From: Myxococcota bacterium
Lineage (GTDB): Bacteria; Myxococcota_A; UBA9160; JAFDDA01
Assembly: GCA_965228475.1 (NCBI GenBank)
Contig: OZ245817.1
Coordinates: forward strand, 1,984,001 to 2,048,000
Reading direction: 5' to 3'
Length of the DNA: 64,000 nucleotides
Shown here: positions 57,336 through 63,929 of the stretch, in pieces
Position numbering within the stretch: position 1 is the first letter of the stretch
Layout of the letters: the number at the start of each line of letters is the position of its first letter
The notes under the pieces: generated by a model
What the model was told of the DNA's origin: nothing
Databases searched by the model: none
The model's input: the letters and a program-made list of their open reading frames with translations, nothing else
Made by a program: the position numbers and the translations under genes

Positions 57336-58351
57336 TCCGCGGCTCGGCTCATGTGCTCGATCAGGTCCACGACGCGGCAAGCGTAGCCCCATTCGTTGTC
57401 GTACCAGGAGACGAGCTTCGCGAAGTTGCCATCAATCACCTGGGCGCTCGGCGCGTCGACGATCGAGGAGCGCGAGTCCCCCCGGAAGTCCTGGGAGACG
57501 CACGGATCCTCGCATACGCCGAGGATGCCTTCGAGCGGGCCCGCGGCGGCGGCGCGCAGGGCGTCGAGCACGGCGCCCGCGTCGGCGTCCTGCTCGAACT
57601 CGACCGAGAGGTCGACGGCCGAGACGTTCGCGGTCGGCACGCGCATCGCGTAGCCGTCGAGCTTCCCGGCCAGGTGGGGCAGCACGAGCCCGAGCGCCCG
57701 GGCCGCGCCGGTGCTCGTGGGGATCATCGAGATCGCCGCGGCGCGGGCACGCCGGAGGTCCTTGTGGGGACGGTCGAGGGTCGGCTGGTCGCCGGTGTAG
57801 GCGTGGATGGTCGTCATCCAGCCCCGGCGGATGCCGAAGTGGTCGTCGAGCACCTTGGCGAGGGGCGCCAGGCAGTTCGTCGTGCACGAGGCGTTCGAGA
57901 CGATGCGGTGCTTGGCCGGGTCGAAGTCGCCGCCGTTCACGCCGAGCACCACCGTCACGTCCGGGTCGGGCGCCGGCGCCGTGATGACGACGCGTTCCGC
58001 GCCGGCGTCGAGGTGCCCGGCTGCGGTCTCGCGGCTGCGGAAGAGCCCGGTCGCTTCGATCACGGTGTCGACGTCGAGCTCGCGCCAGGGCAGGGCGGCG
58101 GGCTCGCGCTCGCCGCAAACCCGGATCGGCTGGCCTTCGACCACCAGCCCGTCGCCGTCGAGTTCGACCGAGCCGGGGTACGGACCGTGGACCGAGTCGT
58201 ACCGGAGCAGGTGGCAGAGGGTACGGGCGTCGGCCAGGTCGTTCACCGCGACCACGTTCATGCCGCGGCCGCGCGCCGCGCGCAGCGCCATGCGTCCGAT
58301 GCGGCCGAAGCCGTTGATCGCGACCCGCGTCTTGGAACCCTTCTCCGCCAT
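57332..58351 (-). CDS. gap: Type I glyceraldehyde-3-phosphate dehydrogenase
   Basis: INGFGRIGR, SNASCTTNCLAP, IPTSTGAA, WYDNEWGY. Confidence 0.97.
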   Translation of the reverse strand: MAEKGSKTRVAINGFGRIGRMALRAARGRGMNVVAVNDLADARTLCHLLRYDSVHGPYPGSVELDGDGLVVEGQPIRVCGEREPAALPWRELDVDTVIEATGLFRSRETAAGHLDAGAERVVITAPAPDPDVTVVLGVNGGDFDPAKHRIVSNASCTTNCLAPLAKVLDDHFGIRRGWMTTIHAYTGDQPTLDRPHKDLRRARAAAISMIPTSTGAARALGLVLPHLAGKLDGYAMRVPTANVSAVDLSVEFEQDADAGAVLDALRAAAAGPLEGILGVCEDPCVSQDFRGDSRSSIVDAPSAQVIDGNFAKLVSWYDNEWGYACRVVDLIEHMSRAAE

Positions 58352-58450
58352 CTCGTCCCTCCCGTCGTTGCTGGCCCTCTCGGGCGGGGGACAGGGTAAC
58401 GGCCCCGGCCTCCGTGAGCTTTGCCGTCGGGGTCGATAAGTTCCCTTTCG

Positions 58451-60907
58451 ATGCGACGGGTCTTCGTTCTGGCGGCGATCGCTTTGCTCGCGCTCTCGGC
58501 CTGGTGGTTCCACCAGCGCGAAGGCGAGGCGAGGCGCGTGCGCTCGGCCGGTCTGCCGACCGTCGAGGGCCGGATCCCCGTGGCCGGCGCCCAGGCGCCG
58601 CTTCGCATCCTGCGCGATGCGCGCGGCGTCCCCCATGTCGAGGCGGAGAGTGAACGCGACGCCTACTTCGGGCTCGGTTTTGCCCAGGCGCAGGACCGGT
58701 TGGGACAGATGGTCTCGATGCTGCGCGCGGCCGACGGCCGCAGCGCGGAGATCCTCGGGCCCGAGGCGCTCGCAGCGGATCGCATGGCGCGGGTGCTCGG
58801 CTTCCGGCGCCTGGCCGCGCGCGCCGCGTCGGATCTCGACGGCCGCACGCGCCGTCTGCTCGAAGCCTACGCCGCCGGTGTGACGGCCCGCCTCAGCCGG
58901 GTCCACGCCGGGCTCGCCGCGCCACCTGCCCAGCTCACGCCGGCCGATCTGCCGACCGCGTGGACGCCCGCGGACAGCTTCGCGGTGCTCAAGGTCTGGG
59001 CCTGGGGCCTCGGCGGTTCGATCGAGACGACCCTGGTGCTCGACGACATCCTCCGCCGCCTCGGTCCCGAGCGCGCGCGGCCCTTCTTTCCGGCGGGCGT
59101 CGGCGTGCGGCCGGCCGGGGACGGGCCGCCGGCGCTCGTGCGGCGGGGCACCCCCGCCGCGCCGAAGGCCGAGTCGACGGCCGGGACGCCGCGCCGGGCC
59201 GCGTTCCGGGATCCGCTGCGCGACGCGCTCGGGATGCGCGCACCCGGCCTCGGCAGCAGCGCCTTCGTCCTCGCGGGTTCGGCCTCCGCGAGTGGCCGGC
59301 CGCTCCTGGCCGGCGACACCCACCTGGCGCCGACGGTGCCCGCGCACCTTCACCTGGCGCACCTCCGGGCCGGGGCGTTCGAGGTGGCCGGTGCGGCCGT
59401 CCCCGGCGTGCCGGTCTTCTGGTCCGGGGGGAACGGCCGGGTGGCCTGGGCGGCGACGGCGGCCCGCGCCTCGGTGCAGGACCTCTTCGTCGAGACCCTC
59501 GACCGCAGCCGCGAGGCGGCCCGCGCCCACGACGGCCGGGGCTGGCGGCGTCTCGAGGTCCGCGAGGAGTCGATCCCGGTGCGCGGCCAAGAGCCGTCTT
59601 CCGTGACCGTCGAGATCGCGCCCCACGGCCCGCTCTTGAATGCGCTCCTCGAGCGCGACCGGGAGCCCCTGGCGCTGGCCTTCGCGGGCGCCCGGCCGGG
59701 CGACGGCATCGGCCCCTTCCTGCGCGCGGCGCGGGCGGCGGACGGGGAGGCCTGGCTCGAAGCGCTCGCCGACCACCACGAGCCGGCGCTGGTCCTGGCG
59801 TGGGCGGCGGGCGACGGGGACGCGGGCCGCACGGTCGCCGGCTGGATTCCCCAGCGCTCCCTGCCCTCGGGGCTCGTCCCCGTGAGCGGCCGCTCGGGCT
59901 GGGCGACCTGGCAGGCCGGGATCCCGGCGTCTCGGCTTCCGCGCGAGCGTCTCGAGGGGAAGCGTGGCTTTCTCATCGCCTCGGACGGGGCCCGCCCCGG
60001 CGGCGAGATCGAGTGGCTCTGGCGAAGCGGCGAGCGGCGCGCCCGCATCGCCGAACGCCTCGAGGCCCTCGTGGGTCGCGGCAGCGTCGACCTCCGCACC
60101 CTCGCGGAAGTCCAGCTCGACCGCCGCGCGGCGGCGGCCACGGCCGTCCTCGAGCCGGCGCTCGCCCTGGCCGGGACGCCCGCCCAGCTGCCGGCCGAGG
60201 AGCGCGAGATCCAGTCGCTCCTGGCCGAGTGGGACGGCGACACCGGCCCCGGGAGCGTCGGCGCCGCGGTCTACCACGTGTTCCTCGACGACCTGGCACG
60301 GGCGCTGCTCGAGCCGAGCCTCGGCGGCGAGCTCTACGCCCGCTACACGGCGCTGCCGCATGCCAACGTGATCCCGCTCGTCGCGCGCGTGCTCGCTGCG
60401 GCCCACGAGGGCTGGGCCCGCGAAGGCGTCGAGGCGCCGGACGAGTGGGCGCGCCAGCGCGTCGCCGAAGCGGTCCGCGCGGCTCTGCGGCGGACCTGGC
60501 TGCGCTTCGGCGTTCGCCTCGGGCCGAACCGCGACAAGTGGCGCTGGGGCGAGCTGCATACGCTCCGCTTCGAGCCCTTCGGCCTGCTGCGCTGGCCCGG
60601 GGAGGGCTTCGCGGCCATCCCCCACCCCGGCGATTCCTCGACGATCGACGCGGGCGGGTACGACTGGAACGATCCGTTCGAGGTGCGCAGCGCCTCGACC
60701 TTCCGGTTCGCGATCGATACCGCCGAGCCCGAGACCTGGCTCGCGCATCTGGCGCCCGGGCAGGCCGAGGCCCTCGGTCACCCCCACCGCGCGGACGGGA
60801 TCGAGGCCTGGCGGGCGGGCCGGCCGCAGCTGCTCTCCCTCGGCGCCGTCCGCCTGAACGAACAGGCCGCCGCGCGTCTCCAGCTCGTCCCCCAGGCTGC
60901 GCCGTGA
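58451..60907 (+). CDS. Penicillin acylase-family (Ntn-hydrolase) protein with divergent active site
   Basis: RDARGVPHV, GFAQAQDRL, LGSSAF...SGRPLLAGDTHL, W.WG.LH, PGQ...HPH. Confidence 0.8.
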   Translation: MRRVFVLAAIALLALSAWWFHQREGEARRVRSAGLPTVEGRIPVAGAQAPLRILRDARGVPHVEAESERDAYFGLGFAQAQDRLGQMVSMLRAADGRSAEILGPEALAADRMARVLGFRRLAARAASDLDGRTRRLLEAYAAGVTARLSRVHAGLAAPPAQLTPADLPTAWTPADSFAVLKVWAWGLGGSIETTLVLDDILRRLGPERARPFFPAGVGVRPAGDGPPALVRRGTPAAPKAESTAGTPRRAAFRDPLRDALGMRAPGLGSSAFVLAGSASASGRPLLAGDTHLAPTVPAHLHLAHLRAGAFEVAGAAVPGVPVFWSGGNGRVAWAATAARASVQDLFVETLDRSREAARAHDGRGWRRLEVREESIPVRGQEPSSVTVEIAPHGPLLNALLERDREPLALAFAGARPGDGIGPFLRAARAADGEAWLEALADHHEPALVLAWAAGDGDAGRTVAGWIPQRSLPSGLVPVSGRSGWATWQAGIPASRLPRERLEGKRGFLIASDGARPGGEIEWLWRSGERRARIAERLEALVGRGSVDLRTLAEVQLDRRAAAATAVLEPALALAGTPAQLPAEEREIQSLLAEWDGDTGPGSVGAAVYHVFLDDLARALLEPSLGGELYARYTALPHANVIPLVARVLAAAHEGWAREGVEAPDEWARQRVAEAVRAALRRTWLRFGVRLGPNRDKWRWGELHTLRFEPFGLLRWPGEGFAAIPHPGDSSTIDAGGYDWNDPFEVRSASTFRFAIDTAEPETWLAHLAPGQAEALGHPHRADGIEAWRAGRPQLLSLGAVRLNEQAAARLQLVPQAAP

Positions 60908-60941
60908 GCGAGCTCGGGGCAACGGTGCGGAGGAGCACGCG

Positions 60942-62018
60942 GTGAGCGAGCCGACCGTGCTCTACCTCGAGGTGCCGGGCTTCTACGCCGAGGTCGAGCG
61001 CCTCGCGCACCCGGAGCTCGCCGGGCGGCCCATCCTCGTCGGCGGGGACCCGCGCAAGGCCGGCACCGTCCAGTCCGCGAGCCGCGAGGCCGTCGCCGCC
61101 GGCGTCGAGGTGGGAATGACGCTGCTCGAGGCCCTCGAGCAGTGTCCGTCCGCGCGTCACTTCCGCACCGACATGCGCCGCTACCGCGAGTCCTCGGCAC
61201 GGCTGCGCGCGTCCCTGCGTCGCTTCGGCGAGCGCCTCGAGCCCGCCGGCCTCGGCGCCGCCTACCTCGACGCCAGCGCCACCGAGAGCCCGCCGGAGGC
61301 GCTGGCGGCCTCGCTCCACAAGGCGGTCGGCGAGGAGCTCGGGCTGCCGCTCCGCGTCGGCATCTCCGCGGTGAAGTTCCTCGCGCGGCTCGCGGCGGAG
61401 GGGCTTGCCGGCGCGCCGGGGGAGAGCCCGGTCCTGCGCATCCCGAGCGGCGAGGAGACCGCGTTCCTCGCGCCGCTGCCGGTCGAGCGCCTGCCGGGCG
61501 TCGGCCCGGCCACCGCGGGGAGCCTGGCCGAGCTCGGCGCGTCCACCGTCGGCGAGCTGGCGGCGCTCGATCGCGCCTCGGTCGAGGGGGCCCTCGGCAG
61601 CCACGGCCGCACCGTCTGGGAGCTCGCCCACGGCCGCGACGCCAGCCGCGTCCGCCCCGCGGCCCACCCGAAGACGCTCAGCCAGGAGTCGAGCTTCTCG
61701 CCGGAAGAGCGCGACGTCTCGGCGATCCTGGCGCGCCTCCAGGAGCTCTCGGAGGGGCTCGCCACCTCCCTCGGCCGGGAGCGGCTGCGGGCCCGCCGGG
61801 TGACCCTCAAGGTCCGCTACGCCGACCAGGAGCGCATCAGCCGGAGCAGCACGGCGGAGACGCCGCTCCAGCAGGCGGCGGAGATCCACACGCGCAGCGT
61901 CCGGCTGCTCGAGCGCACCCAGGCCGGGGAGCGGGCGGTGCGCGGGGTGGGGATCGTCCTGGGGGGGCTCGCCCCCGCCGAGCGGGAGGACCGCCAGCTC
62001 GAGCTCTTCGGCGACTGA
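60942..62018 (+). CDS. DinB/Pol IV-like Y-family protein lacking catalytic carboxylates
   Basis: FYAEVE...PELAGRP..VGG, GM...EA...CP, AYLD, LPGVGP, TLKVRY, C-terminal QLELF. Confidence 0.85.
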   Translation: MSEPTVLYLEVPGFYAEVERLAHPELAGRPILVGGDPRKAGTVQSASREAVAAGVEVGMTLLEALEQCPSARHFRTDMRRYRESSARLRASLRRFGERLEPAGLGAAYLDASATESPPEALAASLHKAVGEELGLPLRVGISAVKFLARLAAEGLAGAPGESPVLRIPSGEETAFLAPLPVERLPGVGPATAGSLAELGASTVGELAALDRASVEGALGSHGRTVWELAHGRDASRVRPAAHPKTLSQESSFSPEERDVSAILARLQELSEGLATSLGRERLRARRVTLKVRYADQERISRSSTAETPLQQAAEIHTRSVRLLERTQAGERAVRGVGIVLGGLAPAEREDRQLELFGD

Positions 62019-62081
62019 CGCCCCGGAAATCCTGCCCTCGCGAAACTCAAGCCCGCCCCGGAAGCCGCCGAAACGGGTCGC

Positions 62082-62414
62082 ATGGGCAAGAGCGGTGCCG
62101 AGCGACGGAAGTATTCACGCCTCTCCACGGATCACGTGATCTCGTTCGCGCACGTCGACACGCGCGATCGGCTGGCCGTCGGGAAGAACCTCTCCGAAGG
62201 CGGGATCCGCTTCGAGGTCGTCGGCTGCGAGATCGCCCTCGGGGACTACCTCAAGGTCACCTTCAACGTCGGGGACCACACGGTGGTCGCGACGGGGCAG
62301 GTGGTCTGGGCCACCGAGATCGACCCGTTCACCCAGGACATCGGCCTCGAGTTCTCGGACGTCGACCCGATCGCCCTGGCGCTCCTCCAGGAAGCCACCA
62401 CCGAAATCGAGTAG
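62082..62414 (+). CDS. PilZ domain protein
   Basis: ERRKYSR (RxxxR) and NLSEGG (D/NxSxxG), G.VVW, GLEF. Confidence 0.85.
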   Translation: MGKSGAERRKYSRLSTDHVISFAHVDTRDRLAVGKNLSEGGIRFEVVGCEIALGDYLKVTFNVGDHTVVATGQVVWATEIDPFTQDIGLEFSDVDPIALALLQEATTEIE

Positions 62415-62522
62415 CCGCCGCCCCGTTTCCCTTCTCACCGTCCGGGATGGGCGGTTGGGAGTTCTGCGTCCGGACGCTCCTCGGCGGTGCGGGCCTGGCG
62501 CGCCAGGCCATGAGGTGCGCGA

Positions 62523-62624
62523 GGGGTCTCCGGGTCCCCCAGCCGGGACCGTAAACCACGCCCCGACGCCCGCGCCCCCAAGCCGTGCGTGACGCCGGTC
62601 CCGGCTGGGGGACCCGGAGACCCC
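62523..62624. repeat. Perfect 29-bp inverted repeats around a 44-bp spacer (MITE/REP-like or structured RNA)
   Basis: ggggtctccgggtcccccagccgggaccg (62523-62551) and its exact reverse complement (62596-62624). Confidence 0.9.
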
Positions 62625-62696
62625 CATCTCCCCCGGAAAGCCGAGAATGTCGCCGCCTTGACACCCCCGCCGGGGGGGTGCGAGCCTCCGTCCGCC

Positions 62697-63929
62697 ATGG
62701 CCGACTTCCACCAGACCGGGGTGATCACCACCCTCCATCGACTCGGCGATCAACCCCTCGAGCTGCTCGAGAAGCGCCTCCTGAACCACGCGACGAACCG
62801 GCCGATCGCGCTCGTCCTGCCGTGCCTCTATCAGGAGCTCCAGGGGCCGGCCCTGAAGCGGATCCTCGAGTCCCTCGCCGGTGTCCGGTACCTGAAGCAG
62901 GTCGTGGTGAGCGTCTCGGGGACGAAGTCCCGGGAGGAGTTCGACCACTTCCGCAAGGCCTTCGACGCGGTGCGGACGCTCGACGACCGGCCGACCACCT
63001 TCGTCTGGAACGGCAGCGACCGCGTCCAGCGCATCTACCAGCGGCTTCGGGAAGAAGGCCTGGACGCCGGGGAAGACGGGAAGGGGAGGGGCACCTGGCT
63101 CGCCTACGGCTACGTCCTCGCCAGCAACCAGGCCCGGGTCGTCGCCCTCCACGACTGCGACATCCTCGACTACGACCGCGAGCTCCTGGCGCGCCTGTGC
63201 TTCCCGACGGTGAACCCGAACCTGAACTACGAGTTCGCCAAGGGCTACTACGGCCGCGTGAGCGACCGCCTGCACGGCCGGGTGACGCGGCTCTTCATGA
63301 CCCCGCTGCTGCGCGCCATGAAGTCCGTGCTCGGCGAGATCCCGCTGCTCGACTACCTGGATTCCTTCCGGTACCCGCTGGCCGGCGAGTGTTCGATGAC
63401 CACGGATCTCGCGCGCATCAACCGGATCCCCTCGGACTGGGGCCTCGAGGTCGGCATGCTCGCCGAGGTCTACCGCAACTGTTCGCTCAAGCGGATCTGT
63501 CAGGTCGAGGTGGTCGAGAACTACGACCACAAGCACCAGGATCTCTCCGAGGAAGACTCGACCCGGGGCCTCCACCGCATGGTCACCGACATCGCGAGCT
63601 CCCTGATCCGGAACCTGGCGAGCTACGGCGTCCAGTTCGACGCGGGCTTCCTGAACACCCTGATCTCCGCCTACGTGCGGACGGCGCAGGACGCCGTCGC
63701 TCGCTACAGTGACGACGCTGCGCTGAACGGGCTCGTGTTCGACCGCCACGAGGAGGAAGTGGCGGTCGAGACCTTCTCACGGGCCCTGCGGGCAGCCGGC
63801 CTGTCATTCGTCCGTGACCCCATGGGGGCCCCCCTCATCCCCAACTGGAATCGCGTGACGTCGGCTCTGCCCGACCTCCTGGGCGAGCTCGAAGCGGCCG
63901 TCGAGGAAGACCTCCAGGAAGGGGTTTAG
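62697..63929 (+). CDS. Glycosyltransferase, glucosyl-3-phosphoglycerate synthase-like
   Basis: MADFHQTGVITTLH, GKGR..W, LHDCDI, KGYY.R, GRVTRL, FRYPLAGE, DWGLEVG, YDHKHQ. Confidence 0.8.
   Translation: MADFHQTGVITTLHRLGDQPLELLEKRLLNHATNRPIALVLPCLYQELQGPALKRILESLAGVRYLKQVVVSVSGTKSREEFDHFRKAFDAVRTLDDRPTTFVWNGSDRVQRIYQRLREEGLDAGEDGKGRGTWLAYGYVLASNQARVVALHDCDILDYDRELLARLCFPTVNPNLNYEFAKGYYGRVSDRLHGRVTRLFMTPLLRAMKSVLGEIPLLDYLDSFRYPLAGECSMTTDLARINRIPSDWGLEVGMLAEVYRNCSLKRICQVEVVENYDHKHQDLSEEDSTRGLHRMVTDIASSLIRNLASYGVQFDAGFLNTLISAYVRTAQDAVARYSDDAALNGLVFDRHEEEVAVETFSRALRAAGLSFVRDPMGAPLIPNWNRVTSALPDLLGELEAAVEEDLQEGV

Follow-up and report, generated by a model that had tools for sequence, protein, structure and literature searches.

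Catalytically inactive proteins of the Y-family DNA polymerase group (PolY) have so far been understood through ImuB, which acts as a scaffold by means of a C-terminal extension and is linked to DnaE2. Other inactive groups (iPolY), described by Timinskas & Venclovas, include an scDinB2-like group found with DnaE2B and a Kyrpidia-type group found with ImuB-C and DnaE2 (PMC6511836). A survey of PolY groups depicts the inactive proteins as "dispersed or form diffuse groups" and reports the RecA-NT motif on the great majority of both active and inactive groups (PMC12926913). DNA polymerase IV (Pol IV, DinB) has been reported to slow the replisome by an effect for which clamp binding is needed and catalysis is not, and which is still seen with inactive Pol IV (PMC9522359). 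The present report concerns a gene for a DinB-like Y-family protein with an apparently inactive site, located in a stretch of 64,000 nucleotides (the window) from a Myxococcota bacterium (assembly GCA_965228475.1, contig OZ245817.1), which represents positions C1:1984001-2048000 of a single 5.0-Mb contig. The name PolYi is used here for the family of non-catalytic Y-family proteins to which it belongs.

The same genomes keep an intact DinB and a full set of ImuA, ImuB and DnaE2 together with this dead DinB-like protein, for which a clamp peptide is the only obvious handle. What is new here is a "solo" inactive PolY, equipped with a clamp motif only, beside DinB and a complete mutasome. PolYi is a natural test case for a question raised by single-molecule work on Escherichia coli Pol IV, namely whether mere clamp occupancy by a non-synthesizing Y-family protein has been selected for a part in fork speed, in polymerase traffic or in the avoidance of mutations. 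In a literature search for inactive Y-family or DinB proteins combined with clamp terms, no title or opening of an abstract described the PolYi family. Its lineage was probably absent from the sampling of the above survey, since the first 30 of the 50 "Myxococc" entries in the supplement of PMC12926913 comprise cultured Myxococcales genera only.

A Y-family fold with a dismantled active site

A preliminary description of the window, made from the sequence alone, had reported a DinB-sized open reading frame (ORF) with a dismantled active site and a retained clamp motif, and all of these features were recovered by Pfam, by alignments to sequences of the Protein Data Bank (PDB) and by inspection of the individual residues. 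Y-family domains extend along the whole of PolYi, thereby excluding a chance match: IMS at residues 12-152 (E 6.7e-30; 104.4 bits, cut-off 23.2), IMS_HHH at residues 171-199 (26.6 bits, cut-off 24.4) and IMS_C at residues 243-355 (E 3.7e-18; 66.4 bits, cut-off 20.7). Comparison with PDB sequences by phmmer aligned residues 6-350 with residues 5-343 of the DinB structure 7yll_A (E 4.6e-38), and residues 6-346 with residues 5-343 of E. coli Pol IV (4ir1_F; E 1.1e-29). NCBIfam gave ten matches, nine to Pol IV models and one to a UmuC model, all of which fell under their curated cut-offs; the best score was that of NF002751, at 208.6 bits versus a cut-off of 371.

An AlphaFold2 model built on 31 family members had a mean predicted local distance difference test value (pLDDT) of 93.5 and a predicted template modelling score (pTM) of 0.84, with disorder confined to the last residues, among them the clamp peptide. 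The top Foldseek matches of this model all belonged to the Y family (DinB, Dpo4, Rev1, iota and kappa; E 1e-34 to 1e-26), with a probability of 1.00 for DinB, Dpo4 and Rev1; the template modelling (TM) score of ∼0.6 and the high root-mean-square deviation form a pattern given by a differently placed little finger. Matches in the ESM Atlas were limited to generic IMS clusters, and PADLOC gave no match for PolYi and its two neighbours. By domain content and predicted structure, PolYi has a Y-family polymerase fold from end to end, comprising palm, fingers, helix-hairpin-helix (HhH) thumb and little finger.

The residues on which catalysis depends in E. coli Pol IV are replaced throughout. In motif I, hvDmDcff of Pol IV is aligned with ylEvPgfy of PolYi, with E10 in place of the first Asp and P12 in place of the second, the steric-gate aromatics F14-Y15 being retained. 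Similarly, YpaR is aligned with ReaV (R48 for Tyr and V51 for Arg), slDEayld with glGAayld (G105 and A106 for the catalytic Asp-Glu), and the lysine of nKp with Ala. The replacement of the first catalytic Asp by Glu is a conservative change in this copy; family-wide, column 10 contains Glu, Thr or other residues.

The occurrence of these replacements was analyzed among homologues from a collection of 5.8 billion proteins, in which 709 proteins were matched among 8000 scored candidates. The counts given below for 120 homologues refer to the best 120 of these 709 matches, 118 of which are full-length. They measure about 350 aa (except for two fragments), share 53-100% identity and, where named, are called "DNA polymerase IV", a label which PolYi-type proteins carry in public records and which inflates the counts of translesion synthesis (TLS) polymerases in these lineages. 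The column of E. coli D8 contained Glu in 63 sequences and Thr in 35, with Asp in only 2, and that of D10 (P12 of PolYi) contained Pro in 116. At the D103 column (residue 105), Gly (53), Asp (29), Glu (23), Ala (12) and other residues were observed, while the column of the catalytic E104 (residue 106) was occupied by Ala (113), Gly (4) or Ser (3), and never by Glu. Tyr was absent from the Y46 column in all 120 homologues, and Arg was present at the R49 column in 34, while F14 and Y15 were present in 118. The commonest combination was E-P-G-A (38 of 120), followed by T-P-D-A (21 of 120), and no acidic residue was conserved at any of the three metal-ligand columns. Among 41 distinct orthologues derived from the loci described below, the catalytic Glu was again found in none, and Pro occupied the D10 position in 40.

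In the active proteins, the corresponding set (D, D, Y, R, D, E) was kept in all 17 DinB paralogues from the same order, including that of the studied genome, and in 39 of the 40 other PolYs that were fetched. The exception (L095) is a different inactive Y-family protein of 422 aa from a Dehalococcoidia metagenome-assembled genome (MAG), with Y/E/G/H at the catalytic columns. The same scan also yielded further inactive and unrelated-looking Y-family proteins from Conexibacter and Solirubrobacterales MAGs (L096 and L097), and dead PolYs therefore seem to have arisen repeatedly. As judged from these residues, PolYi is unable to use the canonical two-metal mechanism, and its deoxynucleoside triphosphate (dNTP) pocket is not intact. 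The loss of the active site is ancestral to the family and not a strain-specific decay.

Retained motifs and the C-terminal tail

Outside the former active site, the thumb, little-finger and tail elements named in the preliminary description are kept. Fifty-six columns were invariant in 31 diverse PolYi members, including F14, Y15, A16, E19, a loop reading GG..RK.G, E100, the glycines of the HhH and a number of arginines in the little finger; within the thumb motif, L184, G186, V187 and G188 were invariant. The little-finger sequence TLKVRY occupies residues 288-293, and the block-mean pLDDT of the AlphaFold2 model was 91-98 across residues 241-340. Each of the 118 full-length homologues had a Q[LM]x[LM]F motif in its last 25 residues, with 0-12 residues behind it (most often 4), and PolYi proteins of the sister order terminate exactly in RQLRLF or RQLELF. 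The three paralogues of the studied genome carry such motifs in equivalent places: QLELF at 352 in PolYi, QLPLF at 351 in DinB and QLDLF at 356 in ImuB.

Distribution and selection

A tblastn search with the PolYi protein over 41 genomes of the same order revealed near-full-length matches in 37, with 42-67% identity and at least 192 bits. The DinB paralogues were separated from these (33-41% identity, at most 170 bits), as was ImuB (about 30% identity). A PolYi-level match was absent from four genomes: three of family f9 (99, 94 and 74% complete), in which only DinB-level matches were found, and one other (G005, 91% complete), which contained a DinB-level match and a partial candidate. One 83% complete genome (G020) had two PolYi-level matches (C166:16628-17668 and C22:1279-2325; 51 and 50% identity to the query), which reflect either a duplication or a mixed bin.

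When 301 genomes of the phylum were scanned with a profile, every genome drawn from six families of the order (f5, f7, f8, f10, f11 and f12) had a PolYi-level match, and all of them except one (G210) also had a second, DinB-level match; the f9 genomes drawn had a DinB-level match only. The sister order (f13) likewise yielded PolYi-level matches, in 9 of its 10 genomes. Genomes of other classes had one match each, and all eight of those fetched were intact short DinBs. A profile search among 1.84 billion representatives at 50% identity placed PolYi-type proteins at ranks 1-28 (547 to 322 bits) and the first active-type protein at rank 29 (321 bits); the PolYi signature was found in about 35 of the best 150 representatives. 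Taxonomic names were nearly absent from the corresponding clusters, of which one in 10 was assigned to a Myxococcota MAG. PolYi thus appears to be fixed across an uncultured class of Myxococcota as a third Y-family paralogue.

The named records with PolYi orthologues are all MAGs, titled Deltaproteobacteria, Myxococcota or Proteobacteria bacterium, or "uncultured Spirochaetales". Five loci with the latter title (L038, L044, L047, L048 and L054) carry the same GAPDH-amidase-PolYi block as the Myxococcota MAGs, together with the PilZ and GpgS-like genes where the contig extends far enough. The "uncultured Spirochaetales" labels are probably wrong.

Ratios of nonsynonymous to synonymous substitution (dN/dS), calculated by the NG86 method, were 0.18-0.41 for eight PolYi pairs and 0.11-0.23 for six DinB pairs (five from the same genome pairs); with dS of 0.50-1.01, near saturation, these ratios are rough, and NG86 was used because YN00 was saturated for 12 of the 14 pairs. 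PolYi is accordingly under clear constraint, although evolving somewhat faster than DinB. An expectation raised by the preliminary description, that orthologues share the loss under purifying selection, was thus borne out by both the missing Glu (0 of 120 and 0 of 41) and the dN/dS values.

Relationship to ImuB and DinB

Two trees were calculated. The first, a quick IQ-TREE search under LG+C20+F+G4, included 80 sequences (30 PolYi, 17 DinBs of the same order, 5 ImuBs and 28 other PolYs); 11 PolYi rows (within L038-L052), 12 likely near-duplicates among the other PolYs and three truncated rows were left out. PolYi formed a single clade with a Shimodaira-Hasegawa-like approximate likelihood-ratio (SH-aLRT) support of 97. 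The five ImuBs likewise formed a single clade (SH-aLRT 99) on a branch of 2.27, and were set off by branches of 2.27, 1.07 and 0.51. A supported branch (95) placed all 44 active sequences on the other side. The PolYi, ImuB and active groups meet at one node, and PolYi therefore falls neither inside ImuB nor inside the DinB of the order. The second tree (66 sequences) omitted ImuB and added five PolYi proteins of the sister order and eight short Myxococcota DinBs. PolYi again formed a single clade (21 sequences, SH-aLRT 100) with a stem of about 0.69, attached at a point with the short E. coli-type DinBs on one side (support 91) and all other active groups on the other (80).

Comparison by hidden Markov models (HMMs) pointed in the same direction. 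ImuBs scored 64-85 bits against the PolYi HMM and 46-82 bits against that of other active PolYs, and the median score against the ImuB HMM was 57 bits for PolYi versus 62.5 for other active PolYs. The proline shared at the D10 position had suggested that PolYi might be a short or early ImuB; this idea was rejected, given the lack of a special HMM affinity and the one-node tree. By these comparisons, PolYi represents a distinct, class-wide family and not an ImuB. The view of the protein as lying apart from canonical ImuB has in this respect stood up, with a clade of its own in both trees.

Other polymerase genes of the genome

Three IMS genes and two DnaE genes are present in the genome. Within the 64-kb window, imuA or dnaE2 was not found, and the other IMS, RecA-like and DnaE matches of the genome lie 0.4 to 1.36 Mb away. 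The earlier statements that PolYi lacks such neighbours and an ImuB-type tail were confirmed, the latter by the 0-12 residues that follow the motif in the homologues.

An imuA-imuB pair and dnaE2 are located at C1:3.175-3.190 Mb (locus L006), about 1.13 Mb from PolYi. ImuA is a RecA-like protein of 249 aa, directly followed by ImuB, which measures 544-558 aa depending on the start chosen, has an IMS score of only 47 bits and extends about 184 residues beyond its QLDLF. DinB lies 2 kb past ImuB (406 aa, IMS 187.7 bits, all six residues kept) and is apparently active, and DnaE2 (1052 aa) lies about 9 kb past ImuB. From this gene content, the organism possesses a canonical mutasome with its own ImuB and an apparently active DinB, PolYi being the third paralogue. 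Its beta clamp (DnaN) is encoded from C1:4897652 onward. The picture of an isolated protein given in the preliminary description was incomplete in that imuA, imuB, dnaE2 and an intact dinB are found elsewhere in the genome, yet it holds in that PolYi lies outside the ImuB clade.

In the DinBs of the order (L006, L098-L113), the clamp motif is followed by a tail of about 50 residues, in which LN.ALD.I..RFG is conserved and which ends in a QIKRGE-type motif; this agrees with the PolY groups of Timinskas & Venclovas that bear RecA-NT. The DinB of other Myxococcota classes is instead short and of the E. coli type (L125-L132). ImuB was found in 38 of the 41 same-order genomes, and its co-occurrence with PolYi is too general to be informative. 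Two discordant genomes, one with PolYi in which ImuB was not found with the query used (G034, 91% complete) and one with ImuB but no PolYi (G010, 99% complete), weakly favour independence of the two.

A 20-nt A/T-rich motif, GCRAAAATWAAGCGAAARTC, was observed just upstream of imuA and dnaE2 (L006:2901-2920 and L006:14515-14534; C1:3174901 and 3186515) and, as an exact sequence, nowhere else in the 5.0-Mb genome. A second element common to both upstream regions, AGTCTTCCG..CAGGAGG, adjoins it. The 20-nt motif, absent upstream of dinB, lexA and recA and from the PolYi/amidase region, may be an operator that is specific to the mutasome genes, which are split here. When a shared operator was sought upstream of lexA, recA, imuA, dinB and dnaE2, only GC-rich near-matches were obtained, and a real shared upstream motif was limited to imuA and dnaE2.

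Gene neighbourhood and coupling to an amidase gene

The features of the PolYi locus, and the intact DinB, are listed in Table 1. In this genome, 34 nt separate the stop codon of the penicillin-amidase-family gene from the start of PolYi. Among 43 distinct loci, the stop and start overlap as RTGA (4 nt) in 18 and as a TGATG-type one-base (-1) overlap in 5 more; the gap is 34 nt or less in 41, with a median of -1 nt across two orders. These overlaps and short gaps are the signature of a co-transcribed, translationally coupled pair, in which PolYi would be the distal gene and the amidase its likely operon partner. The term stand-alone pseudo-polymerase, used in the preliminary description, consequently fits in part: PolYi is conserved and apart from the mutasome, and is at the same time joined to the amidase gene in the manner described (RTGA in 18 of 43).

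The conserved gene order is GAPDH (-), amidase (+), PolYi, PilZ and a GpgS-like gene, and the PolYi genes of the sister order have the same neighbours. Matches were found for the amidase in 46 of 47 loci, for PilZ in 43, for the GpgS-like gene in 42 and for GAPDH in 17 of 18 long-flank loci; the 47 loci include the same contigs from two collections, and the misses are mostly at contig ends. The gap between PolYi and PilZ has a median of 87 nt. The GpgS-like protein is the best conserved of the block (62-88% identity), and its real start is probably an internal Met near 62697. When positions 57800-62700 were scanned for the sigma-70 consensus, promoter-like sites numbered 0 and a single terminator-like hairpin was seen, on the minus strand; shuffled sequences gave as many. 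The GC content of the genome is 68-77% in 2-kb windows.

Table 1. Coordinates of PolYi, its motifs, its neighbours and the intact DinB of the same genome (window positions unless a locus is given)
Feature	Position	Strand	Remarks
PolYi ORF, DinB-like Y-family paralogue with apparently inactive site	60942..62018	+	GTG start, 358 aa
Shine-Dalgarno-like site GGAGGAG	60929..60935	+	Direct sequence reading; GTG start 6 nt on
Motif I region, residues 8-20 (YLEVPGFYAEVER)	60963..61001	+	Alignment to E. coli Pol IV
SREAV, residues 47-51, former dNTP-triphosphate-binding Y..R motif	61080..61094	+	Alignment to E. coli Pol IV
EPAGLGAAYLD, residues 100-110, former SLDE motif	61239..61271	+	Alignment to E. 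coli Pol IV
Thumb helix-hairpin-helix LPGVGP, residues 184-189	61491..61508	+	IMS_HHH match
Little-finger domain, residues 243-355	61668..62006	+	IMS_C; conserved KVRY, TRS, R331/R334
Beta-clamp-binding-type motif QLELF, residues 352-356	61995..62009	+	Then GD and stop; binding predicted from motif
Penicillin-amidase-family gene, 828 aa, N-terminal hydrophobic signal or anchor	58421..60907	+	Pfam Penicil_amidase, E 9.1e-144
PilZ-domain protein, 110 aa	62082-62414		After PolYi in nearly all related loci
GpgS-like protein, 446 aa	62589-63929		Glucosyl-3-phosphoglycerate synthase model, 365 bits versus cut-off 700
Intact DinB	L006:7108-8328	-	∼50 residues after clamp motif (LNQALDEIADRFGG...)

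Possible role of PolYi

Clamp binding, DNA binding and a regulatory role are suggested for PolYi by motif conservation and by analogy. We tentatively favour the reading that PolYi is a non-catalytic occupant of the clamp and the primer terminus which modulates polymerase access, as a gatekeeper or a brake, and consider this quite possible without being probable. Its tail would dock in the beta clamp's hydrophobic cleft, and its thumb and little finger would sit on primer-template DNA. The clamp and primer site would then be held without primer extension, and this occupancy would modulate how Pol III, DinB or ImuB-DnaE2 reach the clamp and the primer end. A Pol IV-like slowing of the replisome, dependent on the clamp and independent of catalysis, would have moved into a separate gene, whose transcription and translation are tied to the amidase gene and not to the mutasome genes. 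A more specific version is doubtful. In it, natural evolution has dedicated PolYi to gating the clamp or braking the replisome, the polymerase-exchange activity of E. coli Pol IV has passed to this gene along with the slowing, its remodelled but strongly conserved former active site caps the primer terminus without extension, and its expression is linked to a non-SOS operon and not to DNA damage. If true, it would make non-catalytic clamp occupancy a selected physiological function and not a side effect of TLS polymerases.

Several points weigh against a gatekeeper or brake. The segments of the former active site, VPxFYAEVER and EPAGLxAAYLD, are among the most conserved parts of PolYi, which hints at a more specific activity or partner, since for competition alone hardly more than the tail should be required. 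The coupling to an amidase with an N-terminal signal or anchor is left unexplained by a role in replication. PolYi seems to be dispensable in some lineages, as the f9 genomes and G005 are without a full PolYi-level match, and no evidence of damage-inducible regulation is apparent, the 20-nt motif of imuA and dnaE2 being absent at PolYi. Moreover, both trees are quick searches with SH-aLRT support only, and their active sequences were sampled by similarity to PolYi.

An ImuB-like adaptor that tethers DnaE2, DinB, Pol III alpha or RecA/ImuA to the clamp, as a part of the mutasome or an alternative subunit, has a precedent in ImuB, the established dead Y-family scaffold bound to the clamp (PMC6511836, PMC12926913). 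ImuB (38 of 41) and PolYi (37 of 41 genomes) mostly co-occur, and ImuB resembles PolYi in having Pro in place of D10 and a small residue in place of E104. However, the 12 or fewer residues after the PolYi clamp motif leave no room for a RecA-NT motif or the C-terminal domain of ImuB, and PolYi lies ∼1.13 Mb from imuA-imuB and dnaE2, without their shared upstream motif. In addition, one genome has PolYi but gave no ImuB match with the query used (G034) and another has ImuB but no PolYi (G010), and ImuB is no closer to PolYi than to active DinBs (median 57 versus 62.5 bits). The gatekeeper or brake is preferred because an adaptor needs interaction surfaces that are visibly missing in PolYi, and we regard the adaptor as unlikely.

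The conserved coupling (18 RTGA and 5 TGATG-type overlaps in 43 loci, with a median of -1 nt in two orders) and the conserved order of the whole block would fit an exaptation of PolYi for a function tied to the amidase and unrelated to replication, the tail being a relic or serving another partner. Such a function is improbable: a terminal QLxLF in 118 of 118 homologues would be unexpected of a relic, and the amidase, with its hydrophobic signal or anchor, is probably exported, whereas PolYi has no such sequence. The gene order within one class may also be plain inheritance, and the remaining neighbours are unrelated metabolic or signalling genes.

It is very improbable that PolYi is still a polymerase or nucleotidyl transferase with a non-canonical active site. 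The Glu at the first Asp position in this copy, the Asp (29 of 120) or Glu (23 of 120) at the D103 position in some orthologues and the steric-gate aromatics F14-Y15, invariant in 31 diverse members, would be compatible with activity, but the three metal-ligand columns contain no conserved acidic residue, and the equivalents of the triphosphate-binding Tyr, Arg and Lys are lost as well. A decaying pseudogene or annotation artefact is hardly credible, for although a GC content of 68-77% gives rise to many long spurious ORFs and all ten NCBIfam matches are below cut-off, intact full-length orthologues with conserved synteny occur in two orders, with dN/dS below 0.42, 56 invariant columns and a confident fold prediction.

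Comparison with known systems

PolYi resembles DinB/Pol IV (E. coli DinB, 4ir1; the PolY-core group) in its length class and four-domain architecture, with 26-30% identity from end to end in structure-based matches, and has in common with it the thumb with its HhH, the little finger, both steric-gate aromatics and, near the C-terminus, a motif of the QLxLF type. In contrast, its catalytic carboxylates and the Tyr, Arg and Lys contacts to the dNTP are all replaced, its scores stay under the cut-offs of all NCBIfam Pol IV models, its clade excludes each of the 44-45 active sequences sampled, and it coexists with an intact DinB in the same genomes.

With ImuB, PolYi has in common the Y-family fold, a dismantled site, the clamp motif, Pro at the position of the second Asp and a small residue at that of the catalytic Glu. 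Unlike ImuB, it has no C-terminal extension (358 aa versus 544-558 aa for the ImuB of its own genome), no RecA-NT-like stretch and no ImuB-C domain, is unlinked to imuA and dnaE2, and is far less diverged from DinB (Pfam IMS 104 versus 47 bits for its own ImuB).

The iPolY groups described by Timinskas & Venclovas are, like PolYi, dead Y-family homologues that have stayed nearer to PolY-core than ImuB has. As described, however, those groups share their operons with dnaE2, a stand-alone ImuB-C or both, and RecA-NT is present in most of them, whereas PolYi has neither and adjoins a gene of the penicillin-amidase family, in genomes that already possess a full ImuA-ImuB-DnaE2. The laboratory mutants of E. 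coli Pol IV provide the remaining parallel, as dead DinB proteins with an intact clamp motif that, as reported, slow the replisome by way of the tail (PMC9522359). In contrast to their engineered point changes, PolYi is naturally fixed and separately encoded, with the whole nucleotide pocket remodelled.

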